Shown in pieces: positions 33,831 through 64,000 of a stretch of 64,000 bases of DNA (position 1 is its first letter; every line of letters starts with the position of its first letter). A program made the translations under genes and the position numbers. The notes under the pieces are model-generated. The model saw nothing but the letters and a program-made list of their open reading frames with translations. It had not been told where the DNA came from and searched no databases. Source of the DNA: Dehalococcoidia bacterium. Lineage in GTDB: Bacteria; Chloroflexota; Dehalococcoidia; SpSt-223. The stretch covers positions 172,145 to 236,144 of the forward strand of contig JANWZD010000002.1 of assembly GCA_025054935.1 (NCBI GenBank). The letters are read 5' to 3'.

Positions 33831-36593
33831 GTGCCGACGCGATTTGCCGCCCAGCTCGACCGGCTGCTTGAAGCAAGCTGGCTCATGGTCGCGATCGTGG
33901 TTCCCCTCTTCTTCAATGTGTTCAGTTCGCGGGTGTTCGAGCCCGACAAGCTGACCGCCTTCCGCGGGATCATGATCTTTGCGCTTGCCGTCTGGCTGCT
34001 CCGCGAACTCGAGCTGCCCGGCGCGCCGGGCAGCCTGCCGCGCCGCTGGATCGCGGGCTTCAAAGCGAACCCGCTTGCTGGGCCAGTGGCGATTTTGGCG
34101 CTCTCCTACGTCATCTCGACGATCTTTTCGGTTCAGCCGCTCGTCAGTATCTTCGGCTCCTATCAGCGGCTGCAGGGGACGCTGAACAATTTCTTGTACT
34201 TCGCGCTGTTCTTCCTCGTTGCGGCTGGGCTTCGCGATTGGGGCCGTCTTGATCGGCTGATCACGACGTTCATCATCGTTAGCGTGCCGGTCAGCTTGTA
34301 TGGGATGTCGCAGCGGCTCGGCCTCGATCCGCTCCCGTGGGGGGCCGATGTCCAGTCCCGTGTCGCCGGCTCGGCCGGCAACCCGATCTTTCTCGGCGCC
34401 TACCTCATTCTCGTTCTCCCCTTCCTCCTCGCCCGCCTTGTCGATGTGGCGACACGGTTCCGGGCCGGAGCACGCGATGGCCGCACGATCGCGCTGCTTG
34501 CGGCCTACAGCGGGGCGCTGCTCGTTAACCTGATCTGCCTCTACTGGACTGGCAGCCGCGGCCCGTGGATGGGGTTCGCTGCCTCGCTGGTGGCGATGGC
34601 GTTCTTCCTTGGGGTCGCCCTGCGCCGGCGGCTGCTGCTGCTCGCCCCGGTGGCGGGGGTCGTCGCTTTCGTTGGGGTGATGGCCTTTCTCAACTCGCCG
34701 CTTGGGGCGCCGCTGGTCGAGGCGAGCGCCTTCGCGGAGCGGCTTGCCAGCATTGACGACGTGACCACGGGGACGAACCGGGTGCGGATGCTCATCTGGT
34801 TTGGCGACGGGGTGGCCAAAGGGGCTGCCGGCATGGTGACCGACAATCTGTTTCGGACGATCGTCGGCTACGGCCCCGAGACGATGTACGTCGCCTACAA
34901 CCGCTTCTATCCCCCCACCCTCGCTCACTACGAATCGCGGACGGCAACGCCCGACCGTTCCCATAACGATTTGATCGACTTTCTCGTCACGAACGGCGTG
35001 ATCGGTCTCTTCGCCTACTTGCTGATCGTCACGACGTTCTTCAGTCTCGCCTTCCGCTTTGTGCGTGACGCCCCGCCCGGCTATCGCCGGCTGATCGCCG
35101 TGGCTGTGGTCGGCGCGGTTGTCGCCCACCTTGTGGAGGCGCTGCTGGGGATCCCGATCTCGTCAACCCGCACCCATTTCTGGATGATCATGGGCATGGC
35201 GACGGCGCTCCCGGTGCTGCTGGCACCAGCCCCCGCTCCCGCTGCCGCGCCGACCCCCGCAAAGCCCAGTTCTGCCGCGCAAGCGCGCGGCCGGCGCCGG
35301 CGGCCGGAAGGGCGGCCCTCCCCGGCGCCGGCACCGCCGCCGGCGAGTCCTACCTGGCTTGCAGCAGCCGCGTGGGTTGTCGTCACGGTCGTCGTGGTCT
35401 ACCTGCTGTTGTTCCAGCCGCGCCTTGTCCAAGGGCTCGTCGGCCAAGACAGCTTTCCCACGCTCGTTGTGCTCGGCGCGTTCGCGTGGGTCTGGGTCGG
35501 CATCGTTGCGCTCGCCACGGCGCTGCCTCTGCCGCCGAGCGGAACCCTGACCCGCACCAACCGCTCGCTCTGGATGGTTGCTCCGTCGCTCGCTTTCCTG
35601 GTCATCCTCCTTGCGGTCAGCTTCGCGAACCCCATCATCGCCGACATTCGCTTCAAGCAGGCGCAATCGCTCGACCAGATCGGGCGCTTCGACTTGAGCA
35701 TTCCGGTCTATTTGAAGGCGATCGAAGCTGCGCCCGGCGAGGACTTCTATCACTTGTTCCTCGGCCGAGCGTATCTCGAGGCGGCGAAGCGCGCGCCGGA
35801 GCAGGGCGCAGCCGTCGTGCCGCGCACGATGGCCGATCTGCAGCGGTTGGCATCCGTCGCCGGCGTCAGCCGCGAGTCGCTCTACTATGCGAGTAAGGTC
35901 GCGCTCGACCAGGCCTACGCCTTAAGTCCGCTCAACACGGACCATTCGGCGAACCTCGGGCGGCTCCATCGCTTCTGGGCGGAGGCCAGCCCCACCCCCG
36001 AGCTGCGCCGCCAGCGGCTTGAGGAGTCGGACCGCTGGTACGAGAGCGCGCTGCGGCTCAGCCCGAACGCCGCCCATCTCTGGACAGAGTGGGGATTGAC
36101 CAAAGAGGCGCTCGGACAGCCGAACGAGGCGGTCCAGAAGTACGAGCACGCGGCGCGGCTGGACAACCGCTATCTCCCGACCTTCCTGCAGCTAGGCAAT
36201 CTCTACTTGAATCAAGCGAACGCGAAGCTTCAGGAGGGCGACCGCGACGGTGCGGCGCCGCATCTCGAGGCGGCTAAGGGCTACTACCAGCGCGTGATTG
36301 AGCTCGATCCGAACCAGCCGATTGCCCACAGCGCCCTCGGGTTCATCTATAACGCGCAGGGCGATACGCGGGCAGCGATCGAGGCGAACGAGCGCGCCGC
36401 TGCCATTGTCCCGAACGACCTTCCGACGCGCCGCAACCTTGCGCTCCTCTACCGCGAGCTCGCGCTGCAGACGAACGACCCCTCCGCACGAGCAAAAGCG
36501 ATCGAAGAGGCGCGGCTGGCGATGAGCCTCGCCCCGGACAATGAGCGCGTCGCGCTCGCGCAGCTGATCGCCGAACTTGGAGGGCGCCCCTGA
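33831..36593 (+). CDS. O-antigen ligase/polymerase-like (Wzy_C) integral membrane protein fused to C-terminal TPR repeats
   Basis: About 450 aa with more than 10 TM helices and a large periplasmic loop. This is followed by an Ala/Pro-rich linker and a roughly 400-aa TPR region (AYLEAAKRAPEQG...LGNLYLNQANAKLQEG...ALGFIYNAQGDTRAAIE). Confidence 0.8.
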   Translation: MPTRFAAQLDRLLEASWLMVAIVVPLFFNVFSSRVFEPDKLTAFRGIMIFALAVWLLRELELPGAPGSLPRRWIAGFKANPLAGPVAILALSYVISTIFSVQPLVSIFGSYQRLQGTLNNFLYFALFFLVAAGLRDWGRLDRLITTFIIVSVPVSLYGMSQRLGLDPLPWGADVQSRVAGSAGNPIFLGAYLILVLPFLLARLVDVATRFRAGARDGRTIALLAAYSGALLVNLICLYWTGSRGPWMGFAASLVAMAFFLGVALRRRLLLLAPVAGVVAFVGVMAFLNSPLGAPLVEASAFAERLASIDDVTTGTNRVRMLIWFGDGVAKGAAGMVTDNLFRTIVGYGPETMYVAYNRFYPPTLAHYESRTATPDRSHNDLIDFLVTNGVIGLFAYLLIVTTFFSLAFRFVRDAPPGYRRLIAVAVVGAVVAHLVEALLGIPISSTRTHFWMIMGMATALPVLLAPAPAPAAAPTPAKPSSAAQARGRRRRPEGRPSPAPAPPPASPTWLAAAAWVVVTVVVVYLLLFQPRLVQGLVGQDSFPTLVVLGAFAWVWVGIVALATALPLPPSGTLTRTNRSLWMVAPSLAFLVILLAVSFANPIIADIRFKQAQSLDQIGRFDLSIPVYLKAIEAAPGEDFYHLFLGRAYLEAAKRAPEQGAAVVPRTMADLQRLASVAGVSRESLYYASKVALDQAYALSPLNTDHSANLGRLHRFWAEASPTPELRRQRLEESDRWYESALRLSPNAAHLWTEWGLTKEALGQPNEAVQKYEHAARLDNRYLPTFLQLGNLYLNQANAKLQEGDRDGAAPHLEAAKGYYQRVIELDPNQPIAHSALGFIYNAQGDTRAAIEANERAAAIVPNDLPTRRNLALLYRELALQTNDPSARAKAIEEARLAMSLAPDNERVALAQLIAELGGRP

Positions 36594-38460: not shown

Positions 38461-38594
38461 CGGTATGCTCCTTGCCCGCCAGTGTAGGTCGGCTCGCTCC
38501 TCTGCTCCAAGGAGTTAGTAGAATTGCGGCGAGGAAACAGCCGCCAGCGCAGGAGCCCCTCAGCTGCGCGCGGTTTTACGGACAAGGAGTTCCC

Positions 38595-41171
38595 ATGTCG
38601 TCGGTCGCGCCCTCGATCACCCCGGCGGACGAGACCTCGTATCGGCTTCCCCGCACCGTTATCCCGCACCGCTATGCGATTCGTCTTGTCCCCGACCTTG
38701 CAGCCGCAACGTTCTCCGGCGAGGAGACGGTCGAGGTGACTGTGCGCGAGCCGGTGCGCGCCATTGTTCTCAATGCCGCCGAACTGGAGATCACTGCGGC
38801 CGAGCTGGTCAAGGAAGGGCGCGCGCTTCGGGCAGCGCCCGACTACGACGAACCGCTCGAGCGGGTGACGCTCGCGCTCGACGCGGAGGCCGAACCGGGC
38901 GAATGGCGTCTCCATCTCCGCTTCACTGGCACTCTCAACGATAAGCTGCGCGGCTTTTATCGCAGCACGTTCAAGGACGAGCAGGGCCAGCAGCAGGTGA
39001 TCGCGGCGACCCAGTTCGAATCGACCGACGCGCGGCGCGCTTTCCCCTGCTGGGACGAGCCCGATTTCAAGGCGACGTTCGCAGTGACGCTCGTCGTCGA
39101 TGAAGGGATGATGGCAATCTCGAACGGACCGGAGGTCCGGCGAGAGCCTGTCGGAGCGGGCAAAGTCGCGGTCACGTTCGCTGAGACGATGAAGATGTCG
39201 ACATATCTCGTGGCGTTTGTCGTCGGGCCGTTCGAGGCGACCACGCCAGTGGATGTCCGCGGCGTGCCGCTGCGGGTCGTCGCCCCGCGCGGCAAGCTCC
39301 ACCTTGCGAACTACGCCCTCACGATCGGGCAATTCGCTCTCACCTTCTTCGCCGACTACTTCGGCATCCCCTACCCTGCCGAAAAGCTCGACCTGATCGC
39401 GATCCCCGACTTCGCCTTTGGAGCGATGGAAAATCTCGGCGCCGTCACCTTCCGCGAGACGGCGCTCCTCGTTGATGAGGCGAACGCCTCCCAGTCCGAG
39501 CTCGAGCGGATCGCCGATGTCGTCGCGCACGAGATCGCCCATATGTGGTTTGGCGACCTCGTTACGATGCGCTGGTGGAACGGCATTTGGCTGAATGAAG
39601 CGTTCGCCACCTTTATGGAGATGGTCGCGGTCGATGCCTGGAAGCCGGAGTGGCGGCGCTGGGACAGTTTTGCGATCGAGCGGAGCGCCGCGATGGCGGT
39701 CGACGCCCTCGAGTCGACCCGTCCGGTCGAATACCCCGTTCGGTGGCCCGCTGAAGCAGCGGACATGTTTGATGTCCTCACCTATCAGAAGGGCGGCGCT
39801 GTGCTGCGGATGCTCGAGCAGTATCTCGGCCCTGAGCGGTTCATGGAAGGGATCCGCCACTACCTCCGCGTCCATGCTTACGGCAACACCGAAACCACCG
39901 ACCTGTGGGATGCCATTGAGGCGACGACCGGCGAGCCGGTGCGCGCGATCATGGACAGCTGGATCTTTCAAAAAGGGTTTCCGCTGATCACGGTCTCGCG
40001 CGGCGACGATGGGCGGGTCTGCCTCCGCCAGCAGCGTTTCCGCTATCTGCCCGTTCCTGAGGAGACTACGCGCTGGAAGGTGCCGATCCTCCTGCGCGCA
40101 GAAGCCGCCGGGCAGACGACCCACTCCAAAGTGCTGCTCGAGGAAGAGACGCTCGCCCTTGACCTCGGCCAGCCGGAGCGGGTTGTCGTCAATAGCGGCG
40201 GCAGCGGCTTCTACCGCGTTCACTACGAGAGCGGTCTGCTCGCGGCGCTTCTGGAGCAGGTGGGCGCGCTCAATCCCGTCGAGCGCTACCAGCTGGTTGA
40301 CAACACGGCTGCGGCGATGGTCGCCGGACGAGCGACGCCAGCCGACCTAATGGCGCTCGCCCGCGCCCTCGCGAACGACGACGACCGCAATGTCTGGGAG
40401 GCGCTGATCAGCGCGCTCAGCTATCTCCACCGCGCCGCCGACGACGACCTGCGGCCGGCGGTGCGGCGGCGGATTCGCGAGCTGCTCAAGCCGAAGGCTG
40501 ACCAGCTTGGCTGGGACCCGGCCCCGAAGGAAAGCGACCTCACCCGCGCCCTCCGCGGCCAGCTGATCCAGGCGCTCGGGACCCTCGGCGACGATGAGGA
40601 GACCCGCGCTCACGCCCGTGCTCGCTACGCGCGCTACCTCGACGACCGCGCTTCGCTCGACCCGAACCTCATAACGCCGGTGGTCGAAGTTCTTGCTTAC
40701 ATCGGCGGCGCCGAAGAGTACGCGCAGTTCGTCGACCGCTACAAATCAGCCGCCACGCCGCAGGAGGAGATGCGCTATCTGCTGGCGCTCGGCGCGTTCC
40801 GCGACCGCGCGCTCGCCTCGCGCACCCTCGAGATGACGCTCAGCGGCGAGGTCCGGTCGCAGAACTCGGCGCTGGTGATCAACCGCGTCCTTGCGAACCT
40901 CACGGCGAGCGACCTCGCGTGGGAATTTATCAAGGGGCACTGGGACGAGATCCTTCAGAAGCTGCCTGCCAACATGGTCCCCCGCACCGTGAGCAGCCTT
41001 GCGGTGGTGATGGACCGCCAGATCGCCGAGGACGCGAAGCGGTTCTTCGCGACGGCGCCGCTGAAGGAGGGGCGGAAGCTGATTGAGCAGACGCTGGAAC
41101 GGCAGGAAACTGCCGTCGCCTTCAGAGAGCGCGCTGCCGGTGTGCTCCGGGAGCTGTTTGGCGGTTCGTGA
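38595..41171 (+). CDS. pepN: aminopeptidase N (M1 family)
   Basis: GAMEN motif, HEIAHMWFGDLVTMRWWNGIWLNEAF zinc site, ERAP1-like C-terminal helical domain. ATG 38595 is preceded by AAGGAG; the track ORF begins 41 codons earlier. Confidence 0.9.
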   Translation: MSSVAPSITPADETSYRLPRTVIPHRYAIRLVPDLAAATFSGEETVEVTVREPVRAIVLNAAELEITAAELVKEGRALRAAPDYDEPLERVTLALDAEAEPGEWRLHLRFTGTLNDKLRGFYRSTFKDEQGQQQVIAATQFESTDARRAFPCWDEPDFKATFAVTLVVDEGMMAISNGPEVRREPVGAGKVAVTFAETMKMSTYLVAFVVGPFEATTPVDVRGVPLRVVAPRGKLHLANYALTIGQFALTFFADYFGIPYPAEKLDLIAIPDFAFGAMENLGAVTFRETALLVDEANASQSELERIADVVAHEIAHMWFGDLVTMRWWNGIWLNEAFATFMEMVAVDAWKPEWRRWDSFAIERSAAMAVDALESTRPVEYPVRWPAEAADMFDVLTYQKGGAVLRMLEQYLGPERFMEGIRHYLRVHAYGNTETTDLWDAIEATTGEPVRAIMDSWIFQKGFPLITVSRGDDGRVCLRQQRFRYLPVPEETTRWKVPILLRAEAAGQTTHSKVLLEEETLALDLGQPERVVVNSGGSGFYRVHYESGLLAALLEQVGALNPVERYQLVDNTAAAMVAGRATPADLMALARALANDDDRNVWEALISALSYLHRAADDDLRPAVRRRIRELLKPKADQLGWDPAPKESDLTRALRGQLIQALGTLGDDEETRAHARARYARYLDDRASLDPNLITPVVEVLAYIGGAEEYAQFVDRYKSAATPQEEMRYLLALGAFRDRALASRTLEMTLSGEVRSQNSALVINRVLANLTASDLAWEFIKGHWDEILQKLPANMVPRTVSSLAVVMDRQIAEDAKRFFATAPLKEGRKLIEQTLERQETAVAFRERAAGVLRELFGGS

Positions 41172-45101: not shown

Positions 45102-45176
45102 GCCGACATGGCTCAGCGGTAGAGCAGCCGCCTCGTAAGCGGCAGGTCCCCGGTTCGAATCCGGGTGTCGGCTCCA
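45102..45176 (+). tRNA. tRNA-Thr: tRNA-Thr (anticodon CGT), CCA encoded
   Basis: 75 nt: acceptor GCCGACA/TGTCGGC, D-arm GCTC-AGCGGTAG-AGC, anticodon arm GCCGC-CTCGTAA-GCGGC (CGT at 45134..45136), T-arm CCCGG-TTCGAAT-CCGGG, discriminator T and CCA. Confidence 0.9.
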
Positions 45177-48240: not shown

Positions 48241-49254
48241 ATGGCGATCGCGATGGGGATCGGGATGTCGGGCGACGGCGTGACCGGCCGCCGGCTGGTC
48301 GAGCTCGGACGCCGGATGGACGAGGCCGGCATGGATGCCATCTGGCTTGGGGAAGTGCTGTATGACATCTTCACCGTCTACGGCGCGCTCTCCCAAGTGA
48401 CGCGGCGGCTGCGGCTTGGTGTCTCCGTTGCGACGTGGGCGCGGACGCCGCCCCTGATGAGCGTCTCCGCCTCGACGCTCGATGCCCTCGCGCCCGGGCG
48501 GATGATCCTCGGCCTCGGGACGATGCCGAAGTTTCGCAACGAGCAGCATCACGGCATCTCCTACCATCGGCCCGTCGCCCGAATGCGCGAGTACCTGACG
48601 CTGATGCGGCTGCTGTGGAAGGCCGTGCCGGGCTCGCCGCTCGACTTCGAGGGCGAGTTCTATACCATCCGCCGCTACGAGCGCTGGAGCGCGCCCGAGT
48701 CGCCCGACCTGAAGGTCTATCTCGGGGCGGTCGGGCCGAAGATGCTGGAACTGGCGGGGGAGCTGGCCGACGGCGTCATCCTTCATCCGGTTCACTCCTA
48801 CCGCTCCTACGCCGAGCTGACCCTCCCCGCTCTGCGCCGCGGCCTCGCCAAGCGCGACCCGAGCCTCGGCCCATTTGAGGTCGTCGGCTCGTTCGAATGC
48901 TCGATCGACGATGATCCCCGCCGCGCGATCGCGCGCGCCCGCAACGGGATCATGTTCTACTTCCGGACGCCCTACATCACGCCGGTGATGGAACTGCACG
49001 GCTTCGTCGAGGAGCAGGCGGCCATTCGTGCCGCGCTCGAAGCGGGCGACCTCGCCAAGGCGGCGCGGATGGTGACCGACGAGATGGTGAAGGTGCTCGC
49101 CATCGCCGGAACAGCCGACGAGGTGCGCGCCGAGGTCGCCCGCTATGAGGGCATGGTCGATGCCGCTGCCCTCGCTGTGCCGACGGCCGGCCTTCCGCCG
49201 GATGAGGTGTGGGAGCAGTACGAGCGTGTTATGCAGACGTTCGGCGCTTCCTGA
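48241..49254 (+). CDS. luciferase-like monooxygenase (LLM class, probably F420-dependent) oxidoreductase
   Basis: LLM TIM-barrel motifs (AIWLGEVLYD; RLRLGVSVATWARTPP; GLGTMPKFRNEQHHGISYHRPVARMREYL). Starts 3 nt after the VOC gene. Confidence 0.8.
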   Translation: MAIAMGIGMSGDGVTGRRLVELGRRMDEAGMDAIWLGEVLYDIFTVYGALSQVTRRLRLGVSVATWARTPPLMSVSASTLDALAPGRMILGLGTMPKFRNEQHHGISYHRPVARMREYLTLMRLLWKAVPGSPLDFEGEFYTIRRYERWSAPESPDLKVYLGAVGPKMLELAGELADGVILHPVHSYRSYAELTLPALRRGLAKRDPSLGPFEVVGSFECSIDDDPRRAIARARNGIMFYFRTPYITPVMELHGFVEEQAAIRAALEAGDLAKAARMVTDEMVKVLAIAGTADEVRAEVARYEGMVDAAALAVPTAGLPPDEVWEQYERVMQTFGAS

Positions 49255-49264
49255 ACCCTCGTCC

Positions 49265-52200
49265 TTATTCCCGGACCTCGAAGCGCGCGCTGCCGCTTCG
49301 GCCCCACACCTCCGGGAAGTACATCAAGCTTGCCCGCGCCGGCGGGACGACGAAGTCGCCGGCCGTCGTCACGCGGACGAGGTAGGAGAACTGGTAGGTT
49401 CCCCGCGGTAGAGCGCGCGCGAAAAGGGCGACCCGGTCATCGCGGATATCGATATGCGAGAAGCGCCAGGCCGATCGCCCGCCTCCTCGCTCGAAGATAC
49501 TCGCCGTCGCAAGGTCGGGGTTCACGGCCTCGGCGCCGGCGAACAACGGGTCGTCCACCACCACGTAGTCGAGGTCGCTCGGGGCGATGATGGTCAGCTG
49601 GACGCGAATGAGGTCGCCGACCCTCGCAGAACGGATCGGGCTTGTGCTGGTCGGGTCAGCGGGCAGGTACTCGCGGGTGATTGCAATCCCCTCCGCGCGC
49701 GGCTCGGCCTGCTCCCCAAGGCGGAAGGTGCGGAGCGACGCCGTGTAATAGAGCCGTCCCGCGGCGCTCGGTAGGCCGCTCGCCTCCCGCTCGAGCACGA
49801 GCCGGTTCGGCGCGTCGAGCAGCAGGTCGCGCACGGGGACAACGAGTGTGCGCGCGCCCGGCGTGTCCTGGGTGACGCGGCCGCTCGCGAGTGCTCGGCC
49901 GTTGAGGGAGACGCGATAGCGATAATCGGGCGACGGCAGAGCAGAGCGAACAGCATAGACAGCAAGCGCGTTCAGCGCGGCGGCGGTGTCGAAGGTGGTG
50001 CCCCACCAGCCGTCGCGCCGCTCGATCATCAGCCAGCGCACGGCCGGGTCAATGAGCGGGCTTTGCGGGTCAGCGGCGAGGAGGGCTTGCAGGACGACTG
50101 CCGTCGATCGGCTCGTTCCGCCGAGTCTGCGTCGGTCGCCGGGGTCGTTCCAGTGGACTCCGGTCGCGCTCCACGTGGCGGTGCCGACAAGTTCGTTCAG
50201 CAGGGTCGCAGTGCGGGCGTCGCCGCGGTCGCCGTTCGCCCGGAAGATGGCGAGGAGGAGGGACGCCTTGGCCCAGTCGGCGAGGGCAGCCCGCCGCTCG
50301 AATAGGGCGTTGAGCGCTCCGGTCGAAGGCCGCCCCGCTTCGGCGAGGACGAAGAGGGCATAGGCGCGGGCGTTGGCATCGTCGGGACTGCCGACGTCGA
50401 CAGGACGCTGCAGCTGCTGCGTCACGGCATCGAGGCCGCGCGCAAGGCTGCTTTCATCGACTGCGTAGCCGGCCTTCTGCGCCCTGATGAGGCCAAAGAC
50501 GGCGTAGGCGGTGAGGAAGGGCTGGCTTGGGTCGCCGCGGAACCAGCCCCAGCCGCCGTCGGTCCGCTGCGCCAGCGCAAGCCGCTGGAGGGCAGCAATA
50601 TTCTGGTCCGCAATCCGGCTGACGAGCTCCGGCGTCAGCGTTCCCGTCGCGCTCAGGACGCGCAGGTAGTCGAGCGAGGAGAGTAGCCGCGAGACGGTTA
50701 CCTCGGTCGGCTCCCACGGGAAGGCGCTCAGTTCGCGGAAGCCGGTTTCTAGGCCGGCGGTGAGTGAGGGAGCGAGTTCGACCGTCAGTTCGCCGAGATT
50801 GGGGTTGACGGGGCTCGGCACCCGGACCGTTTCGACCACTTGGGCGGCGACTTGCCCGCTAGAGGCGACGACCTCGGCGGTCGCGAGCGGATTGACCGGC
50901 AGCGCAATTTCGACGGCGTCGCCGGGGGGGCTGGTCCCGCCGGTGTCGGCGCGGAAACGGAGACGCGCCTCGCCCGGCTGGCCGGCGCTCACCTCCCAGC
51001 GGGCGCTTGCCGTCCCGCGCGCCGGGACGCTCAGCCGCGGCGCCGCGAAGCCGCCAGCCGGCGAGGCGAGATTGCTCACCTCAAGGGTGGCGGTAACCTC
51101 CAGCGGCCGGTCGGTCAGGTTCTGGACGATCGCGCCGACTGTCGCCCGATCGCCGCTGGTCAGGAAGCGCGGCACCACCGGCCGCACGAGGAGGTCCTTC
51201 GTGCTGACGATGTCATGGGTCGCTTGACCGAACTGGGAGTCGCGCGTCACCGCCTTGACAGTCAGCCGCCACGTTGTCAGATTGTCCGGAAGCATGACAT
51301 CGAATGTCGCCTCGCCGTTGCGGTCGGTGACAAGACGGGGGCTCCAGAAGGCGGTATCGGCAAAGCGCGAGCGCACCTCGCGGATCGCGCCGCCGCCTCC
51401 CTTGCCGGCGGCGCGTGAGGCGATGTCGAGGCGGGTCTGCGATGCCGCTAATGTCGCGGCAGTGACGACGCCGAGTCCGCGCTCGCGGTAGAAGCGATCA
51501 AACAGCCACGTCGGCGGCTCGTCGTCGGCGAGCGACAGGACAGCGCGGTCGACGACCGCCGCCGAGAGCTGCGCCTGCACCGGCCGTCCGGCGGCATCGG
51601 TCGCCTTCACCCGGTAGCGGACGGTCTCGCCGGGCTGGTAGCGCGCCTTGTCGCTGCGGATCTCGAGCGTGAGCAGTTTCGCCGAGGCATCCACCCGAAG
51701 ATTGGCGTAGCCGAGCTTGTAGGAAGGCGGCCCCTGGGCGCTGTCGCCGGCAAAGGCGACGACCGAGACGAAAACGTTCGGCAGGTAGTCGGGCTCGACG
51801 GGGATGTCGAGAACGGGGCTGCTGGATGTCAGCGTGACGACGCGGGAGGAGCGCACGCCTTGGCGCTCGATGGTGAGGAGCGCGGTTGAGGTCGCGAACG
51901 GGGTCGGCACGAGCAGCTTCGCGGTCTCGCCCGGCGCGTAGACCGGCTTGTCGAGGACGAGGTCCATCCGGTCGTTGCTCTCCAGCCCCCAGTTGACGAA
52001 CTCGGTTCCGGCAACCCAGAGGAAGGCGACCGTTCGTACCTCGTTGCCGAGTTCATCGCGGCCCGTCGCTTGGATGCGGTAGAGGCCAGGGCGCGGAGGC
52101 GTGAACGCCGCTTGGGCGCGGCCGTTCCTGTCCGTTGTCAGAGTGCGCGCTGCGCCTGGCACCGGCGTGTCCTCGAAGGTCGTGACCCAGACGAGGTCAC

Positions 52201-55057
52201 CCTCGGGCGTGCGCTCCTGCACCGAGTAGTAGCGCCGAGCGGCGAGGTCGAGCGTGAGCGGCACGCTCGGACGCGGCCGCACGTCGATACCGACCGTTGC
52301 GATGTCCCACGTCGCTGTCTCGCCGCTGCGCACGAGGCGCGTCGGGCTGCGCACGCCGATGTAGAAAGCCCCTTTGTGAGCGATGATCTCTGCCCGCCCG
52401 CTGATCTGCTGGGCGCTCTCGTCGCTGACCGACGCCTCGACCGTCAGCAGCCGGCTGCCCTGAAAGCGGTCGAGATCAGCGCGAAAGGCGATGTCGACGC
52501 GGCCTTGGCGGTCGAGTGTCCCGAGGCCGGACGCGAGCGCCTCCGGCCCGCTGCCGACCGGCGGCGGCCGGAGATCGACGACGCCGTAGGTAAAGCCGGT
52601 CCAGTCGGTCCCCGTCGGGCCGCGGAAGATGTAGGGGTCGCTGGCAACGCGCCACGTCACGCGGCCGCCGGCAACCGGCGCTCCGAAGAAGTACTCCGCG
52701 GCGACGGTGACGCTGACCGTCTGGTGGGCGACCACCTGCTCCTCTTGCGGCCGCACTTCGACCTGGAACTCAGGACGACGATACTCTGCCACTTGGAAGC
52801 CGGCCCACGCGGAGAAGTCGGTCGCGGGGTCTCGGAGCGTGATCGACCAATCGCCGGTCGCGGCATTCTCCGAGAGCGGGATCTGGCCGGAGAAGGTGCC
52901 GAAGTCGTCGAGGATGACTGTCTGCGAGAGGACGGAGCGGCCGGTCGGGTCGGTGACTGCCAGCTGGAAAGACGACAGCGCTGTCGGCAGGCTGTAGGCG
53001 CCGTCGTCATCGCGCCGGACGATCCCTTTGAAATAGACAATCTGGCCGGCGCGATAGACCGGGCGGTCGGTGAAGATCGCCGCGCGGTACGGCGAGAGCG
53101 GCAGCTCCCCCTCGATCCCGAATTGCCACGGCTCGATCCCGTCTGACCAGCTGGCCGAGACGACCGATGGCCCGTCCGGCTCGTCGAGAAGCACCCAGAG
53201 ATTGGGCGGCGGCCCCCCCGGGAGGGGAAAGCGGGCGACGCCGTCGGCGCCGGTACGGACTGGCTGGGGCATCGGGAGGGGCTGGGTTGGACCGAAGAAT
53301 GCCTGCACCGGCGCGTTCGCGACCGGTTGGGCCGTCGCCGGGTCGGTCGCCCAGAGCAGCGCCTCGTTCGCGCCGAGCTTCACGGTGAGGGCGCGCCGCG
53401 AGACAGCGAGCAGCTGGGAGTCGCGCACTCCCGCGCCCTCGGCGGTGAGGAAATAGAAGCCGGGCCCAAGCGGCTGGCCGCCGACCGTGAGCGTCTGCGT
53501 GACGACCCGCGTCGCATTCAGTTCCCCGCGCGTATCGACGGTCCATTCGCCGGCAAGCTGGCCCGGCGGCGCGGCCGGATTGTTCCCGCCCGGCCTCGAA
53601 GAGGCAAGGTCGAGATAGGTCCGCTGATCGAGCCGGTAGAGCCGAAGGGTCGCCGACGGGACATTGACAGCCTCGAGCGCGCCCAGCAGCGGTGTCCCGG
53701 CGAGCACTGTCGTCGTCTCGGCAGTGCTGAGGAAGGTGAGCCGCGGCGGGGTCGTCGCGGTGGTAAAAGCGATCCGCTGCGGCGTGCCAATCGCTCTGCC
53801 GAGCCGGTCCCGCGCGTCCGGTCCGACAACGACGCTGTAGGCGGTCGACGGCTGGAGCCGGAAGAAGAAGGTCAGGCGCGTGTTCGACTCGGTCCACGAG
53901 GAGAAAACCTGCGTTGGCGCGGGCACGATCGTCAGGTTCGCCGCCACCGAGGCGGGATCCATCGGCTGATTGAAGGTGAGCGAGAGCTGGGTTGTCGGCG
54001 CGGCGGTGGCGCCGTCGGCAGGGGTCGACGCGACAAGGCGCGGCGGCCCGACGGTCTGGAACGTCCACCGGAACGGCTCGGGTGAGGGGAGCGGCCCGTC
54101 GCTGCCCCGGAGGCCGGCGGCAAGCTGTGCCGCGTAGGTGACATCGGCGGCAAGGGGCTGCGCCGGCACGAACGCAACGCGGCGGTCGCTCTCCCACCGG
54201 AACGTGCCGGCAACAGGCTGATCCGTCGGCCCCGTGAGGCGGAACGCCGCTTCCACGCTCGCGCGGTCCATCGGCTGGTTGAAGACGAGGGTCAGTTCTT
54301 GGGTCGTGGGGACGAAGCGGCTGTTCGCGGTCGGCGTGAACTCGGCGAGTGCCGGCCGAATGGTGCTGAAGGTGGAGCGGACATCGCTCGCCAGCCGGCC
54401 TCCGGTGACATCCTCGACATCGCGGCGAAGAGTGACGGTGTAGACCGACGCGGGACGGAAGCCGTCGCGGCTTTGGAAGCGGTAGACGCTCGGGCTGATC
54501 CAGCGTCCGGTTCCTAGGAGCGACGGCGTGATGACGAGCGGGTCGGGGGTGCTGCTGGCGCCGAGCGCGACGACTGGCCGGTTGAAGGCGACTGTAATCG
54601 CCGCATCGAGCGGAACGTCGAGGGCGCCGTCGAACGGAAAGAAGGCAACAGGAACGAGGTCGCCGGCGGTGGTGAACTCGGCCGAGAACGGCTCGCGCAG
54701 CGGCAGAGCGGCGGCGCTCCGCGCGGTTGTGCCGAGGGTGACGGTGTAGGTGGTATTCCGCGCCAATGGGCGGGACGGCGCGAAACGGACAGTATCGCCG
54801 CTCCACTCGAAGCGGCCGTCGACAGCCGGCTGGAGCTGGAACGCCCGTTCGACCGAGGCGCGGTCCATCGCGGTGTTGAAGGAGATGACGATGGTCGCGG
54901 TGGGCGGGACCTCGCGCTGCTGCTCCGGCTCGTAGGCGATGACCGCCGGAGCGACTGGCGCACGGCGAAGAAGGAGCAGCGTCGCGACGGTGCCCCCTGC
55001 CAGAACGAGGAGGGCGAGGAGGATACCGGCGATGGCGATCCAGAAGCGCGCGCTCAT
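49265..55057 (-). CDS. alpha-2-macroglobulin family protein (1930 aa), N-terminal TM anchor, tandem Ig-like repeats, MG domains; no cysteine, so thioester-less
   Basis: N-terminal anchor (FWIAIAGILLALLVLAGG) and at least four SbsA-type Ig-like repeats (...FNTAMDRASVERAFQLQP..., ...FNQPMDRASVEAAFRLTGP..., ...FNQPMDPASVAANLTIVP...). A2M MG/bait region (REVRSRFADTAFWSPRLVTDRNGEATF...TTWRLTVKAVT), alpha-helical TED-like region and receptor-binding-like C-terminus. The position equivalent to CxEQ reads SAFPWEPTE. The gene is immediately downstream of pbpC. Confidence 0.85.
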   Translation of the reverse strand: MSARFWIAIAGILLALLVLAGGTVATLLLLRRAPVAPAVIAYEPEQQREVPPTATIVISFNTAMDRASVERAFQLQPAVDGRFEWSGDTVRFAPSRPLARNTTYTVTLGTTARSAAALPLREPFSAEFTTAGDLVPVAFFPFDGALDVPLDAAITVAFNRPVVALGASSTPDPLVITPSLLGTGRWISPSVYRFQSRDGFRPASVYTVTLRRDVEDVTGGRLASDVRSTFSTIRPALAEFTPTANSRFVPTTQELTLVFNQPMDRASVEAAFRLTGPTDQPVAGTFRWESDRRVAFVPAQPLAADVTYAAQLAAGLRGSDGPLPSPEPFRWTFQTVGPPRLVASTPADGATAAPTTQLSLTFNQPMDPASVAANLTIVPAPTQVFSSWTESNTRLTFFFRLQPSTAYSVVVGPDARDRLGRAIGTPQRIAFTTATTPPRLTFLSTAETTTVLAGTPLLGALEAVNVPSATLRLYRLDQRTYLDLASSRPGGNNPAAPPGQLAGEWTVDTRGELNATRVVTQTLTVGGQPLGPGFYFLTAEGAGVRDSQLLAVSRRALTVKLGANEALLWATDPATAQPVANAPVQAFFGPTQPLPMPQPVRTGADGVARFPLPGGPPPNLWVLLDEPDGPSVVSASWSDGIEPWQFGIEGELPLSPYRAAIFTDRPVYRAGQIVYFKGIVRRDDDGAYSLPTALSSFQLAVTDPTGRSVLSQTVILDDFGTFSGQIPLSENAATGDWSITLRDPATDFSAWAGFQVAEYRRPEFQVEVRPQEEQVVAHQTVSVTVAAEYFFGAPVAGGRVTWRVASDPYIFRGPTGTDWTGFTYGVVDLRPPPVGSGPEALASGLGTLDRQGRVDIAFRADLDRFQGSRLLTVEASVSDESAQQISGRAEIIAHKGAFYIGVRSPTRLVRSGETATWDIATVGIDVRPRPSVPLTLDLAARRYYSVQERTPEGDLVWVTTFEDTPVPGAARTLTTDRNGRAQAAFTPPRPGLYRIQATGRDELGNEVRTVAFLWVAGTEFVNWGLESNDRMDLVLDKPVYAPGETAKLLVPTPFATSTALLTIERQGVRSSRVVTLTSSSPVLDIPVEPDYLPNVFVSVVAFAGDSAQGPPSYKLGYANLRVDASAKLLTLEIRSDKARYQPGETVRYRVKATDAAGRPVQAQLSAAVVDRAVLSLADDEPPTWLFDRFYRERGLGVVTAATLAASQTRLDIASRAAGKGGGGAIREVRSRFADTAFWSPRLVTDRNGEATFDVMLPDNLTTWRLTVKAVTRDSQFGQATHDIVSTKDLLVRPVVPRFLTSGDRATVGAIVQNLTDRPLEVTATLEVSNLASPAGGFAAPRLSVPARGTASARWEVSAGQPGEARLRFRADTGGTSPPGDAVEIALPVNPLATAEVVASSGQVAAQVVETVRVPSPVNPNLGELTVELAPSLTAGLETGFRELSAFPWEPTEVTVSRLLSSLDYLRVLSATGTLTPELVSRIADQNIAALQRLALAQRTDGGWGWFRGDPSQPFLTAYAVFGLIRAQKAGYAVDESSLARGLDAVTQQLQRPVDVGSPDDANARAYALFVLAEAGRPSTGALNALFERRAALADWAKASLLLAIFRANGDRGDARTATLLNELVGTATWSATGVHWNDPGDRRRLGGTSRSTAVVLQALLAADPQSPLIDPAVRWLMIERRDGWWGTTFDTAAALNALAVYAVRSALPSPDYRYRVSLNGRALASGRVTQDTPGARTLVVPVRDLLLDAPNRLVLEREASGLPSAAGRLYYTASLRTFRLGEQAEPRAEGIAITREYLPADPTSTSPIRSARVGDLIRVQLTIIAPSDLDYVVVDDPLFAGAEAVNPDLATASIFERGGGRSAWRFSHIDIRDDRVALFARALPRGTYQFSYLVRVTTAGDFVVPPARASLMYFPEVWGRSGSARFEVRE

Positions 55058-55071
55058 GGCTCGTCTCCCTC

Positions 55072-57468
55072 TTATCTTCCGTCGACCCGAATGCGCCGCT
55101 CATCGGCAGCTACTTCGCTGCCGTCGCGGAGGAGGGCGGCTCGGACGACATGCTCGCCCGGCTCGAGCGTCCACCATCCTTCAGCGGCTCCGAGCGGAGC
55201 GATCGGGATGCCGTTCACGGTGAGGAGAACAGCGCCGCCGGCGGCGGCAGCCCGGACGCGCAGCCGCTGCATCGCCGTCGGCAGCCGCGGCGAGATGACC
55301 AGTTCGGCGCCGTCGTCGGGCGCGACGAGCCGGACGAACCGAGGTGCCTCGTCGCGCTGACCGGTGAGACAGCTCTCAGTCGGCGGCAGGGGGATGCCGC
55401 GCTCCTGCGCCCACGCGAGCGCCGGTGGCGGGACGATCCAGAACAGGCGCTCGCTGACCGGTCCGCGGCAGCCCGGCTCCCACAGCCGGCCGGTCGCGCT
55501 GTCGATCCGGAGGCGCTGGTAGCTCGTCGACGGCTCGCTCGGCTCGCGGCCGGCGAGAAACGGCTCAAGGACGACCCGCGGGCAGTCGGGCGCAGCGCGC
55601 TTGCCGTCCACCTCGCAGACTGCAGCCCAAACAATCCCCGCCGGGACGGGAAATGCCTGCGCCGGCTCGCCGCGCAGCGCCTCGCTGATGAAGTCGCGCC
55701 AGATCGGGGCCGCCCCGGAGATACCGCTCACCTCGCGCATCGGCCGGCCGTCGCTGTTGCCGACCCAGACGCCGACCACCAGCTGCGGCGTGAAGCCGAT
55801 CGTCCAGTTGTCGCGGAAGCGGCTGGTCGTGCCTGTCTTCACGCCGGCCGGACGGGAGAGCGTCAGCGGATTGTTCATGCCGAAGGACAGTTCGCGGGCG
55901 CGGGGGTCGCTCAGCACGTGGGCGACAAGGTAGGCGATTTCCGGGGCGAGCACCTGCCGCGGCGGCGGCCGCTCGATCGCAACGAGCGTCTGCCCTGCGC
56001 TCGATTCGATCCGCAGCAGGTCAGCCGGGGGAGAGAGAAGCCCGCCGTTTGCAAACGCAGCGTACGCTGCCGTCAGGTCGAGCAGCGTCACCTCGCCGCC
56101 GCCGAGGGTGAGGGCGAGGTCGTAGCGGTCAGCGTCGTGCCATGTCGAGATCCCAAGCCGCTGCCCCATCTCGACCAGCGCCGAAACGCCGATCCGGTCG
56201 AGCAGCTGGACGGCAACGACGTTGATCGAGGCGCCGAGCGCGGTCCGGAGGGATATCGGGCCATGATAGTCGTGGTCGTAATTGACGGGGACGAAGGGCT
56301 CGCCGCGGCGGGTTGTGAACGTCGAGCGGACGTCAAAGAACACATCGGCCGGCGCATAGCCGCGCTCGAAGGCGGCAGCGTAGGTGAGCGGCTTGATCGC
56401 CGAGCCGGGCTGGCGCGGTGAGACGGCGACATTCACTTGGCCGTCGATCGCGGGGTTGAAGTAGTCGGCCGAGCCGGCAAGCGCGAGGATGTCCCCCGTT
56501 CGCGGGTCGATGGCGATGAGGGCAGCGTTGGTGACGTCGTGGTTGGCGAGGCGGGCGAGATGGCGCGCGATCGTCCGTTCGGCAAGCTGCTGCAGGCCGG
56601 CGTCGAGCGTCGTGATCACGCGGCTGCCGCCGTGCTGAGCGGCAAGCGCGAGCGCCCGCTCGCGTGTCCCGACCACAAAGTGCGGCGCAACGACCGGCGG
56701 CGCTGACGGCCGAAGCTCGAGCGGTTCGGCGGCGGCGCGTTCCGCCTCGTCCCGGCTGAGCATGCCGCGCCGTGTCATCAGCGTGAGCACGGTCTGGCGC
56801 CGCTCGAGCGCAAGCGCTGGGTCGTCGCGCGGGTCGTATCGCGCGGGGGCTTGGAGCAAGCCAGTGAGAAGAGCCGCTTGGCTGACCGAGAGATCGGACG
56901 CGGCGACGCCGAAGTACGCCCGGCTTGCGGCGTCGATCCCGACGGCGCGAGCGCCGTAGGGGGCGCGGTTGAGGTAGAGGCGGAGGATCTCGTCTTTCGG
57001 GAAGTGGCGGGCGATCTGGAGCGCGAGGGCCAGTTCCCGCGCCTTGCGCCGCAGCGGGGGGTGGGCGAGCGGGTCGTCGCGGAGCAAGGCCTGCCGTGCC
57101 AGCTGCATTTCGATCGTGCTCCCGCCCGACGGCTCGCCGCGCAGCGACTGACCTGCCGCCCGGAGGAGCGCCACGAGATCAACGCCGGGATGCTGGAAGA
57201 AGCGGTGATCTTCGGTCGCGAGGGTCGCCGCCACGACGCTCGGCGCAATTTCATCACGCCTGACCGGCCGGACGCTCCCAACCTCGGTCTCGATCTCGTA
57301 GAGCAGGCGCCCGTTGCGGTCGAGGATGAGGATGGACGCGGGCGGGTCCGCGAGCATGACGGGCGAGGGCAACTCGGCCAGTGCCCAGCGGAAGGCCGCG
57401 ACAGCCGCGACCCCGACGATCGCGAGGGCGAGACCAGGGTGCTGCCATGCTCGCATTGATGCTGACAA
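55072..57468 (-). CDS. pbpC: penicillin-binding protein 1C (bifunctional GT51 transglycosylase / transpeptidase)
   Basis: TM anchor, GT51 motifs (ATLATEDHRFFQHPGVD; GGSTIEMQLAR), transpeptidase SxxK/SxN/KTG context (GSAIKP; KTGTT), and a PbpC-type C-terminal beta-domain. 14 nt upstream of the A2M gene on the same strand. Confidence 0.9.
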   Translation of the reverse strand: MSASMRAWQHPGLALAIVGVAAVAAFRWALAELPSPVMLADPPASILILDRNGRLLYEIETEVGSVRPVRRDEIAPSVVAATLATEDHRFFQHPGVDLVALLRAAGQSLRGEPSGGSTIEMQLARQALLRDDPLAHPPLRRKARELALALQIARHFPKDEILRLYLNRAPYGARAVGIDAASRAYFGVAASDLSVSQAALLTGLLQAPARYDPRDDPALALERRQTVLTLMTRRGMLSRDEAERAAAEPLELRPSAPPVVAPHFVVGTRERALALAAQHGGSRVITTLDAGLQQLAERTIARHLARLANHDVTNAALIAIDPRTGDILALAGSADYFNPAIDGQVNVAVSPRQPGSAIKPLTYAAAFERGYAPADVFFDVRSTFTTRRGEPFVPVNYDHDYHGPISLRTALGASINVVAVQLLDRIGVSALVEMGQRLGISTWHDADRYDLALTLGGGEVTLLDLTAAYAAFANGGLLSPPADLLRIESSAGQTLVAIERPPPRQVLAPEIAYLVAHVLSDPRARELSFGMNNPLTLSRPAGVKTGTTSRFRDNWTIGFTPQLVVGVWVGNSDGRPMREVSGISGAAPIWRDFISEALRGEPAQAFPVPAGIVWAAVCEVDGKRAAPDCPRVVLEPFLAGREPSEPSTSYQRLRIDSATGRLWEPGCRGPVSERLFWIVPPPALAWAQERGIPLPPTESCLTGQRDEAPRFVRLVAPDDGAELVISPRLPTAMQRLRVRAAAAGGAVLLTVNGIPIAPLGAAEGWWTLEPGEHVVRAALLRDGSEVAADERRIRVDGR

Positions 57469-62383: not shown

Positions 62384-62725
62384 TCAGCTGCGGAGGCGGT
62401 CGAAATACAGCCGCTCCGCGGCGATGCGGCCGTCGCGGATTTCGAGGATCGAGACCCATTTTGAGAGGCGGGTGCTGGTCTCGAACACCCCTTCGACCGC
62501 GACATGGCGGCCGTCGTCGCCGATGATGACCAGATGCGCCGTCAATCGCCCGTCGCCGGCGTTGCGCTGATCCTGCGCGACATGAGCGTCGCGGCCGACG
62601 AGCGGCTCGGAGCGGCCCGGCGTCAGATAGGTGACATCGTCGGTGAAACAGTCGGCATAGGCGGCCCAGTCGCGCCGATTGAACGCCTCGATCCAGCGGG
62701 CGACGAGCGCGCGGAGGTCAGCCAT
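62384..62725 (-). CDS. SnoaL-like / NTF2-fold small protein
   Basis: LVARWIEAFNRRDWAAYADCFTDDVTY... (113 aa). Start overlaps the stop of the upstream PBP gene (TGATG). Confidence 0.65.
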   Translation of the reverse strand: MADLRALVARWIEAFNRRDWAAYADCFTDDVTYLTPGRSEPLVGRDAHVAQDQRNAGDGRLTAHLVIIGDDGRHVAVEGVFETSTRLSKWVSILEIRDGRIAAERLYFDRLRS

Positions 62726-64000
62726 CAGTTTGCTACCACGACGGGGATTGTCGTCGTCTGCCGACCGCCGCTGCGGTCGAAGACGTGCAGATAGATCGTG
62801 TAGCTGCCGTTTCGGAACTGCGTGGTTGGGAAAGTCGCGAGAAAGCCGTCGCCGGGTGCGAGCGACTCCCCAATGGCAGTGAACTGGGCGCCGTTCAGCC
62901 CGGGACTGACCTCAACTTTGTAGGCGGCGAAATTTGCCACGTTGGCGATCCCCGAGATCGGCACATTGCCGCGCAGGACGGCGCCGGCCGCCGGCGCGGC
63001 GATCGCGACCCCGAACGGGCCGCGAAGCTGTGGCCCAGGGGTGCCGACCGGCTGCGGCATCACTGGCCCTGGCGTCGGGGTCGGGGTGAAGGCGGCGATC
63101 GCGCAGGGCGCCCAGCGGGTAGGCGGCTGCGGAAGCTCACGCTCTTCTGGAGTGGGGGTGCCCGCGCTCGGCAGCAGGATGTAGAACTCCCGATCCTCGA
63201 CCTCCTCTGGCTTGCATCCTTCGTTGGCGCGCAGGGAGGGGTCGCTCTTCAGAACGAGCACTTTTTCGACCTTGAACCGCGGTGCCGGCGGCTCAAACCC
63301 GCGAATGTAAAGGTCGTTGGAGACGCGGGCGCATTCTGGGGGGAGCCCTTCGGCGACGCAGGTGCGCGGGTTGACCACGCGGGCCGGCTTGTCGTACCAG
63401 AGCTTGCTGACCCAGTGCTTCTCGCCGGCGCCTTCAGCAGGCTGGAAATGGACGCCGTCAAACTCATCCTTCGGGAAATAGCCGAAGGCGCGCTCCATAA
63501 ACTCGTTCCAAATGAGCGCGGGCGTGCGCGACCCGTTCAGCCCCGCCATCGGGCGATTGTCCGAATTGCCGACCCAGATCCCGGTCACAAGGTACGGCGT
63601 GTAGCCCATCGTCCAGCCGTCGCGATGGTCATCTGTCGTGCCGGTCTTGACGGCGGCGGGGCGGCTGAGGCGAAGGGGCGGACCGGTGCCGAACGTCACG
63701 CGGCGCGCCTGCGGGTCGTTGAGCATGTCGGCGATCATGTAGGCGATCTCTTCCGTCAGCACGCGCTCCGGCTGGCGAGCCGGGTCGGTCGCAGCATCGT
63801 AGACCACTTGGCCGTTCTCGTCGAGGATTTTCAGGAACGGCGTGAGCGGCACTTTCAGCCCGAGATTGGCGAACGTTGCATACGCCTGCACGTGATCGAT
63901 CAGCCGCACTTCGCCGCCGCCGAGCGTGATCGCAAGGCCGTACCGGTTTGCATCCTTGAAGCTGGTGATGCCCATCTTCCGAGCGAGCTCGATCATCTCT
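62725..64000 (-). CDS. penicillin-binding protein, PBP1C-like paralogue (C-terminal part only; 5' end beyond window edge)
   Basis: The frame is open to the window end. The visible region aligns motif-for-motif with the C-terminal half of pbpC at 55072..57468 (MGITSFKDANRYGLAITLGGGEVRLIDHVQAYATFANLG vs LGISTWHDADRYDLALTLGGGEVTLLDLTAAYAAFANGG; KTGTT; PbpC-type C-terminal beta-domain). Confidence 0.8.
   Translation of the reverse strand, partial: EMIELARKMGITSFKDANRYGLAITLGGGEVRLIDHVQAYATFANLGLKVPLTPFLKILDENGQVVYDAATDPARQPERVLTEEIAYMIADMLNDPQARRVTFGTGPPLRLSRPAAVKTGTTDDHRDGWTMGYTPYLVTGIWVGNSDNRPMAGLNGSRTPALIWNEFMERAFGYFPKDEFDGVHFQPAEGAGEKHWVSKLWYDKPARVVNPRTCVAEGLPPECARVSNDLYIRGFEPPAPRFKVEKVLVLKSDPSLRANEGCKPEEVEDREFYILLPSAGTPTPEERELPQPPTRWAPCAIAAFTPTPTPGPVMPQPVGTPGPQLRGPFGVAIAAPAAGAVLRGNVPISGIANVANFAAYKVEVSPGLNGAQFTAIGESLAPGDGFLATFPTTQFRNGSYTIYLHVFDRSGGRQTTTIPVVVAN

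Follow-up and report, generated by a model that had tools for sequence, protein, structure and literature searches.

Gene organization at the pbpC-macroglobulin locus

A penicillin-binding protein gene, pbpC, and the gene for a large bacterial alpha-2-macroglobulin (A2M) lie side by side in a 64,000-nt stretch of a Dehalococcoidia bacterium genome (contig JANWZD010000002.1, positions 172,145 to 236,144, assembly GCA_025054935.1; this whole stretch is referred to as the window). Both genes and all features described within them are on the minus strand. The first gene of the pair, pbpC (55072..57468), encodes 798 amino acids (aa) from a TTG start at 57468, with an alternative ATG four codons in. 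The second, the A2M gene (49265..55057), is a single 1930-codon reading frame that starts with ATG and encodes a 1930-aa protein. The two are separated by a spacer of only 14 nt (55058..55071), in which a Shine-Dalgarno-like GGGAGA, resembling a ribosome-binding site, follows the pbpC stop. This order is the reverse of that in Escherichia coli K-12, where yfhM precedes and abuts pbpC; the open reading frame (ORF) coordinates and the K-12 comparison thus bear out what an earlier note, made from the sequence alone, had said about spacing and orientation. The two genes are probably transcribed as one unit, since a terminator scan of 48.8 to 58.3 kb gave no more matches than expected from shuffled sequence and none at the pbpC-A2M junction. 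A promoter scan of the same region, also at or below the shuffle expectation, was uninformative.

The upstream protein has the three domains of a PBP1C. Pfam matches to Transgly (172 bits), Transpeptidase (75 bits), and BiPBP_C (28.8 bits against a cutoff of 26.8) were all above their cutoffs, and TIGR02073 (PBP_1c) was by far the best of the scoring models, at 491.9 bits, 2 bits under its equivalog cutoff of 494.2. The E. coli PbpC, which has the same architecture including BiPBP_C, matched over nearly the full length (238 bits, aa 28 to 761, phmmer); it differs in lying downstream rather than upstream of its A2M. The catalytic motifs EDHRFFQHPG, RKARE, SAIK, SIN, and KTG can all be read in the translation. 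The protein therefore appears to be a catalytically competent class A penicillin-binding protein (PBP) with a GT51 glycosyltransferase domain, a transpeptidase domain, and the PBP1C-specific C-terminal BiPBP_C domain.

Domain architecture of the macroglobulin

The Pfam domains of the A2M follow the order four Big_5, bMG3, MG2, bMG5, A2M_BRD, A2M, TED_complement, and bMG10; the macroglobulin (MG) ring, the bait-region domain, the A2M domain, the thioester domain (TED), and the C-terminal MG domain that characterize the superfamily are thus all present and in the correct order. Translation and hydropathy place a hydrophobic helix at the N terminus (approximately aa 5 to 30, 54968..55045). It is followed by four tandem immunoglobulin-like Big_5 domains (approximately aa 41 to 445, 53723..54937; 184 bits over four stretches) and by the N-terminal part of the MG ring, comprising bMG3, MG2, bMG5, and others (aa 446 to 1031, 51965..53722), which aligns with the MG domains of the E. 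coli A2M (ECAM, the yfhM product) and the Salmonella A2M (Sa-A2M). The bait-region domain A2M_BRD spans aa 1032 to 1176 (51530..51964; 75 bits). Beyond it lies a predicted disordered bait loop, GVVTAATLAASQTRLDIASRAAGKGGGGAIR (aa 1196 to 1226, 51380..51472), containing the motif GKGGGG (aa 1218 to 1223, 51389-51406). The TED homolog, predicted to be an alpha/alpha toroid lacking the thioester, occupies approximately aa 1421 to 1720 (49898..50797), with the TED_complement match at aa 1438 to 1542 (29 bits). The C-terminal MG domain bMG10 (aa 1790 to 1916, 49310..49690; 107 bits) carries a conserved Met-Tyr pair, the "lock," at aa 1912 and 1913 (49319-49324).

The relationship to the ECAM type was evident both in sequence and in predicted fold. 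ECAM/YfhM and Sa-A2M were the best sequence matches in the PDB (phmmer E values of 3e-48 and 2e-42), and the motif LMYFPEVWGRS, which includes the lock, aligned with EMYFPEVFGRS of the relatives described below and with SMYVPQ of ECAM. An AlphaFold2 model covering aa 1030 to 1930 had a mean pLDDT of 85 and a pTM of 0.69. It was confident in the bait-region domain and helical, with high pLDDT, in the TED (residues 403 to 675 of the model fragment). Values of pLDDT fell below 50 over a long stretch only in the bait loop (residues 167 to 197 of the fragment), which aligns with the ECAM bait. The bait region is therefore predicted to be exposed and flexible. In a Foldseek search, the best matches to the model were native Sa-A2M and native ECAM (4u48 and 5a42; TMq 0.61, E about 1e-49); activated ECAM matched less well (TMq 0.42 to 0.49), and complement C5 and a frog ovostatin-like tetramer were also found. 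However, several differences from the ECAM type were apparent. First, identity to these proteins is only about 21 to 25%. Second, the window A2M has about three additional N-terminal Big_5 domains. Third, its host belongs to the Chloroflexota rather than the proteobacteria. Finally, it lacks the thioester.

Loss of the thioester site, the lipobox, and all cysteines

No cysteine is present among the 1930 residues of the A2M. The other long ORFs of the window have a Cys content of 0.9%, which under uniform composition gives a probability of about 2e-8 for a protein of this length having none; its absence is therefore not an effect of composition. For comparison, thioester-bearing relatives have a median of 5 cysteines. 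The position at which the thioester would be expected was located by two alignments. The ECAM sequence YPYGCLEQ aligned with FPWEPTEV (aa 1446 to 1453, 50699..50722) in the phmmer search against the PDB, and in an alignment of 120 relatives the same residues fell under the consensus YPYEC[VTI]EQ. Relative to these sequences, the Cys is replaced by Pro1450, the Gln by Val1453, and the pocket tyrosines by Phe1446 and Trp1448, with Pro1447 and Glu1452 kept. Thus the earlier note's observations that the protein is free of Cys and reads LSAFPWEPTEV at the thioester position both held in these alignments, and no CxEQ was found.

In ECAM the thioester pocket is formed by Tyr1183, Tyr1185, Cys1187, and Gln1190, and in Sa-A2M Met1625 and Tyr1626 of the C-terminal MG domain, together with two TED tyrosines, make up the thioester pocket and lock (PMC4498604). 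At the level of the alignment, the window A2M retains the lock as Met1912-Tyr1913 and has aromatic residues, Phe1446 and Trp1448, in place of the two TED tyrosines.

The N terminus has changed as well. About 26 residues form its single strongly hydrophobic stretch (Kyte-Doolittle maximum of 2.65 over 19 aa, at aa 12 to 30); as had been noted earlier, this is a predicted transmembrane helix in place of a lipobox, the anchor of the ECAM type. Because there is no Cys or lipobox, this helix is taken as a signal anchor. By analogy with the lipoprotein relatives and with PBP1C, the protein is probably held in the membrane with its body outside the cytoplasm. Most of the 105 thioester-bearing relatives have a Cys near the N terminus (98 within the first 45 aa), and a strict lipobox is present in 80 of the 105; the window A2M and three of its close relatives have the hydrophobic helix only. 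Since CxEQ and the lipobox are both common in the family and both missing here, the clade of the window A2M has lost both functional cysteines.

A Chloroflexota family with a thioester-bearing ancestor

A search of 5.8 billion proteins returned 820 homologs at an E value of 1e-10 or lower, of which the best 120 were aligned with MAFFT. All 120 are 1900 to 2200 aa long and have the same Big_5 and A2M architecture, and those with a named source come from Chloroflexota metagenome-assembled genomes (MAGs) of the Anaerolineae, Dehalococcoidia, Chloroflexia, and others. The consensus at the thioester site, in full YPYEC[VTI]EQTVSRFLPN, retains Cys...Gln in 105 of the 120 sequences and lacks it in 15. 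The window A2M carries each of the family motifs GKGGGG, LPDNLTTWR, DGGWGW, and MYFPEV. The six closest sequences (46 to 100% identity) all lack CxEQ, five of them reading FPWEP[TNV]EV and one YEFETIEA; the clade of the window A2M comprises five or six sequences from MAGs or assemblies with 46 to 79% identity to it. The identical protein has been deposited twice, as MCS6801064.1 and MDW8253126.1, from a Chloroflexota/Dehalococcoidia MAG. Its public label is "Ig-like domain-containing protein," and many relatives are called "hypothetical protein" or carry the COG name "YfaS"; the family is effectively unannotated as A2M.

These relatives bear directly on whether the missing thioester could be an error of sequencing or assembly, or the ORF two genes falsely joined. 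The source is a MAG and one relative is frameshifted, which would favor such an error. However, the same Cys-free site, FPWEP[TNV]EV, and a length of 1930 to 1937 aa occur in independently assembled genomes from different samples, the identical protein is recorded for two contigs or accessions, and the architecture is collinear with ECAM, so that an artefact is hardly credible. A frameshifted fusion of two genes, raised as a possibility in the earlier note, was rejected, since its domains run in the same order as in ECAM and in over 100 full-length relatives.

The family does not fit easily into the two recognized types of bacterial A2M. In the literature, Type I proteins have CXEQ and a PBP1c operon, and Type II proteins lack CXEQ and belong to a mag operon (PMC5764988). 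By overall score the window A2M is nearly as close to E. coli YfaS (151 bits; the K-12 gene is a pseudogene interrupted by an in-frame stop, which was read through for this comparison) as to E. coli YfhM (159 bits), and YfhM outscored YfaS in only 48 of the 120 relatives. Overall score was therefore dropped as a basis for assignment, and TED coverage alone discriminates between the types: the YfhM alignment covers aa 622 to 1610 and 1791 to 1924, through the TED and bMG10, whereas that of YfaS covers only aa 655 to 1317 and ends before the TED.

For these reasons a Type II macroglobulin, of the kind represented by YfaS and the Pseudomonas aeruginosa protein MagD, that had been relocated next to pbpC is very improbable. 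Such an origin would agree with the absence of CxEQ, the retained bait region, the closeness of the two scores, and the "YfaS" name given to relatives in the JGI data. Against it, the nearest relatives outside the clade bear the thioester, as does the root of the family, and the YfaS TED cannot be aligned with the window A2M. The six-gene mag/yfa operon that accompanies Type II proteins is also absent from the locus: tblastn searches for YfaP, YfaQ, YfaT, and YfaA gave only noise in the window (E of 0.03 or higher) and nothing at an E value of 0.01 or lower in six related loci. The Chloroflexota family is best seen, from its sequences, as a lineage of its own with Type I properties, and the two-type framing used in the earlier note is a poor fit for a protein whose family descends from a thioester-bearing ancestor.

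One MAG, that of Anaerolineales DeMMO6_43, encodes two family members. One is thioester-bearing and has pbpC convergent downstream; the other is thioester-less and has no pbpC. The pair echoes the YfhM/YfaS duality of E. coli, yet inside a single family.

Recurrent thioester loss and linkage to pbpC

To what extent thioester-less members recur was seen in two samples. In the first, one genome per GTDB species, 80 Chloroflexota loci were collected; CxEQ was present in 64 of 78 and absent in 14 of 78. The second consisted of 80 more loci from JGI metagenomes, of which 56 of 74 had CxEQ and 18 of 74 did not. The JGI scan, made with the window A2M, found no new clade member, and all of its loci are distant relatives with at most 41% identity. 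In a neighbor-joining tree of 183 full-length sequences rooted on YfhM and analyzed by parsimony, the root was thioester-positive and at least 13 changes were needed to account for 25 thioester-less tips. It is well supported that the family ancestor carried both the CxEQ thioester and a lipoprotein anchor. Some of the losses are very recent. A good example is the pair P0015 and P0016, which read ESTDQ and ECTEQ, respectively, at a distance of 0.12.

The linkage to pbpC was maintained irrespective of the thioester. About half of the loci with adequate flanks adjoin pbpC, usually with pbpC first, and the order pbpC then A2M is the norm in Chloroflexota. Adjacency was found in 26 of 54 thioester-bearing and 6 of 16 thioester-less loci (Fisher P = 0.57). 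Among the thioester-less A2Ms that lie directly behind a pbpC-like gene there are at least six degenerate sites: FPWEPxEV in the clade of the window A2M, YQYESAEQ in L016, [TA]PYFSSEA in the Roseiflexus-type loci L051 and L109 (also Cys-free), TIYEGSEY in L127, L128, and L143, RPFEDTVY in L130, and YSYESTEK in L096. Outside the clade, the upstream genes scanned for BiPBP_C were those of L016, L051, L109, L127, L130, and L143, and all but that of L016 gave a match. The L016 gene, like that of L096, encodes a PBP1C-like class A PBP. A thioester-less A2M next to pbpC is thus a recurring state in Chloroflexota, which answers the question of recurrence raised in the earlier note with at least six lineages.

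Within the clade of the window A2M, synteny of pbpC and A2M is kept in all five members with a readable upstream flank (the window, L081, L082, L086, and L089), and in the relatives the two genes overlap or are 4 to 10 nt apart. The neighborhood dcd (minus strand), pbpC, A2M is common to them, and L086 agrees with the window on both sides.

Thermophily was considered as a driver of thioester loss. Thioesters are heat labile, and some relatives come from hot springs (KatS3mg, Roseiflexus). By a crude proxy, the IVYWREL composition of the flanks of 58 loci (window value, about 52°C), thioester-less and thioester-bearing loci did not differ (Mann-Whitney P = 0.45); the idea is not supported, although this proxy is noisy.

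Purifying selection on the thioester-less protein

The thioester-less A2M evolves under purifying selection. Compared with a relative of 79% identity (Nei-Gojobori method, dS about 0.94), dN/dS was 0.145 for the whole A2M, 0.118 for the TED, and 0.171 for PBP1C, and it was 0.12 to 0.15 in every domain of the A2M; in more distant pairs, where dS is saturated, the values were 0.19 to 0.35. These values speak against a decaying gene, one that lost its function with the thioester mutation and whose ORF persists by chance or through polar effects in the operon. Some observations would fit such decay: the TED no longer has its extra conservation, its frame is broken in one clade member, and the clade seems rare, no relative above 41% identity having been found in the JGI metagenome scan. 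However, the window and four relatives of 46 to 79% identity have an uninterrupted ORF of 5.8 kb, the AlphaFold2 model is confident, and the lock and the pocket aromatics are kept; such a length of neutral sequence, at 68% GC, would not have remained open over this divergence. Decay is therefore improbable.

Possible role of the thioester-less macroglobulin

The window A2M is very probably a functional, secondarily thioester-less member of the Chloroflexota-wide family, with four Big_5 domains and an ECAM-like body, in a pbpC-A2M unit. The full proposal, in which this identity is combined with a non-covalent mechanism shared with PBP1C, is favored with distinctly less confidence, though it still has the better of the case. 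By analogy with characterized macroglobulins, the protein is most likely a membrane-anchored, bait-triggered, non-covalent protease trap or shield that works with PBP1C. Its uncleaved N-terminal helix would anchor it in the cytoplasmic membrane, with the body outside, beside PBP1C. A foreign or misplaced protease would cut the exposed, disordered bait loop, and the cut would free the lock between the TED and the C-terminal MG domain, leading to a large rearrangement as in ECAM, where the TED and, once cut, the bait compete for the C-terminal MG domain (PMC4498604). The protease may then be held or sterically shielded without a covalent bond, and PBP1C made from the same transcript could repair or reinforce the peptidoglycan at that site. 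The parts that such a mechanism would use, namely the bait loop, the Met-Tyr lock, and the aromatic pocket residues, are all retained. The non-covalent trapping or structural role put forward in the earlier note is a reasonable suggestion, to which the analysis adds purifying selection and the kept bait loop and lock.

Precedents for non-covalent action exist. MagD holds a protease non-covalently after bait cleavage (PMC5764988), and thioester-less tetramers trap without a covalent bond because their four subunits form a cage. In complement C5 and ovostatin, too, the macroglobulin fold has outlived loss of the thioester and serves non-covalent roles (PMC9156758); these proteins differ in being eukaryotic, secreted, and often oligomeric, and nothing in the window A2M indicates oligomerization. 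The repeated losses, the unchanged pbpC linkage, and the continued purifying selection suggest that covalent capture is an optional add-on rather than the core of what the Chloroflexota proteins do.

Several points weigh against a protease trap or shield. First, the monomeric inhibitors of the A2M family studied so far (ECAM, Sa-A2M, A2ML1, and rat A1I3) depend on covalent conjugation (PMC9156758), and a thioester mutant of Sa-A2M is unable to trap (PMC5764988). Second, MagD requires MagB and other partner proteins (PMC5764988), and partners of the MagD type are not encoded in the window or the six related loci searched by tblastn. Third, the TED is the most conserved domain in thioester-bearing pairs, with identity ratios of 1.18 (pairs of 33 to 45% identity) and 1.09 (60 to 82%); in the clade of the window A2M the ratio is only 1.00 to 1.02, which means that the extra constraint tied to the thioester is gone. 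Fourth, in L089 (KatS3mg060, GCA_026003895.1, 6001-11787) two frameshifts, at about aa 1520 and about aa 1853, put the TED-CUB part out of frame, and its identity is 55% compared to 73% in the rest of the protein. Either the assembly is in error or the TED is starting to be lost in that lineage, and the domain could be becoming dispensable. Fifth, bait regions are usually hypervariable, yet in this clade the loop shows unusual conservation, as would suit one specific partner or cleavage event more than broad-spectrum baiting. Finally, a literature search turned up no paper on any Chloroflexota A2M. The GKGGGG(G) in the middle of the loop is near-invariant across the family, with or without the thioester.

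Because the monomeric A2Ms studied so far need covalent capture, a different role has to be given substantial weight, although it is considerably less probable: the A2M could be a scaffold or sensor associated with PBP1C rather than a protease inhibitor. The macroglobulin fold, possibly through a bait cut, would then act as a switch that positions, activates, or regulates PBP1C in the envelope, and the thioester, never essential, would have been lost repeatedly for that reason. The equal frequency of pbpC adjacency with or without the thioester agrees with this, as do the recurrent losses followed by continued purifying selection and the covalent requirement reported for monomeric inhibitors (PMC9156758). 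The clade-conserved bait loop and the family-wide GKGGGG, unlike a hypervariable bait, fit a scaffold slightly better. It is also established that thioester-less C5, one of the fold matches, acts as a binding platform. However, pbpC does not adjoin the A2M gene in about half of the family loci whose flanks are long enough, and the A2M can therefore work without a linked PBP1C; most members keep the thioester, whose sole known use is covalent capture; and two papers on bacterial A2Ms (PMC5764988, PMC4498604) give no evidence of a physical interaction between an A2M and PBP1C in any organism. A more specific form, in which the conserved role of the bacterial pbpC-A2M module would not depend on covalent capture at all, is doubtful. 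The macroglobulin would be a conformational sensor or a scaffold, triggered by protease cleavage, that brings PBP1C to damaged parts of the envelope or activates it there, and the thioester would be an accessory of little benefit to its carriers, lost at least 13 times in Chloroflexota while the pbpC linkage stayed unchanged. If true, this would change the "periplasmic defence/repair" model and supply PBP1C with a defined regulatory partner.

Whether the A2M is a protease trap, a shield, or a switch, the Chloroflexota loci repeatedly break the rule that joins the thioester to pbpC in Type I and its absence to the mag operon in Type II, and they challenge the view that inhibition by a monomeric A2M requires a covalent bond to the protease. 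This large family keeps its pairing with pbpC, its bait loop, and its lock with or without the thioester. Loss of the thioester elsewhere in the superfamily was already known from C5, ovostatin, and Type II proteins, and in that respect the result is an incremental refinement; what is new is that Chloroflexota have a large, so far unannotated family, that a pbpC-linked lineage has lost the thioester repeatedly, and that the pbpC linkage is independent of the thioester. The P0015/P0016 pair and the clade of the window A2M are natural matched sets for the contribution of the thioester and may illuminate the pairing of A2M with PBP1C.

Surroundings of the gene pair

A luciferase-like monooxygenase gene (48241-49254, plus strand) is convergent with the A2M gene, and the two end 10 nt apart (49254 and 49265), with no terminator-like hairpin detected in the gap. 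Directly after the A2M gene of the more distant clade relatives lie, in convergent orientation, a SnoaL-like gene and another class A PBP gene (about 880 to 890 aa, without BiPBP_C), at 13810-16790 in L081, 13845-16882 in L082, and 6435-9460 in L084, so that the A2M stands between two PBPs. Neither the window nor L086 has this pair; in both, the luciferase-like gene comes directly after the A2M gene. A second class A PBP is represented in the window by its C-terminal part, which runs off the right end (63118-63996, minus strand; 39% identity, E = 4e-51 by tblastn with the PBP1C transpeptidase region, aa 431 to 697). Its frame and extent are tentative, as a Pfam scan of the ORF at 62725-63996 gave nothing at an E value of 1e-5 or lower. 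No second copy of the A2M was found in the window.

Envelope-related genes are abundant around the locus (11295-16891, 17806-20106, 33831-36593, and 38472-41171, all on the plus strand). Two large ones, in tandem, encode PMT/TMEM260-like glycosyltransferases; the others encode an M1 aminopeptidase, a protein of the penicillin amidase family (641 bits), and a protein in which a Wzy_C O-antigen-ligase-like part is fused to TPR repeats. Between an acyl-CoA dehydrogenase-like gene and uvrA there is a gene for tRNA-Thr (CGT), at 45102-45176 (plus strand). Alternative-frame ORFs of 358 to 698 aa over the A2M and pbpC genes (53007-55103, minus strand; 52070-53146 and 55150-56421, plus strand) are shadows of the kind expected in DNA of 70% GC and not genes.

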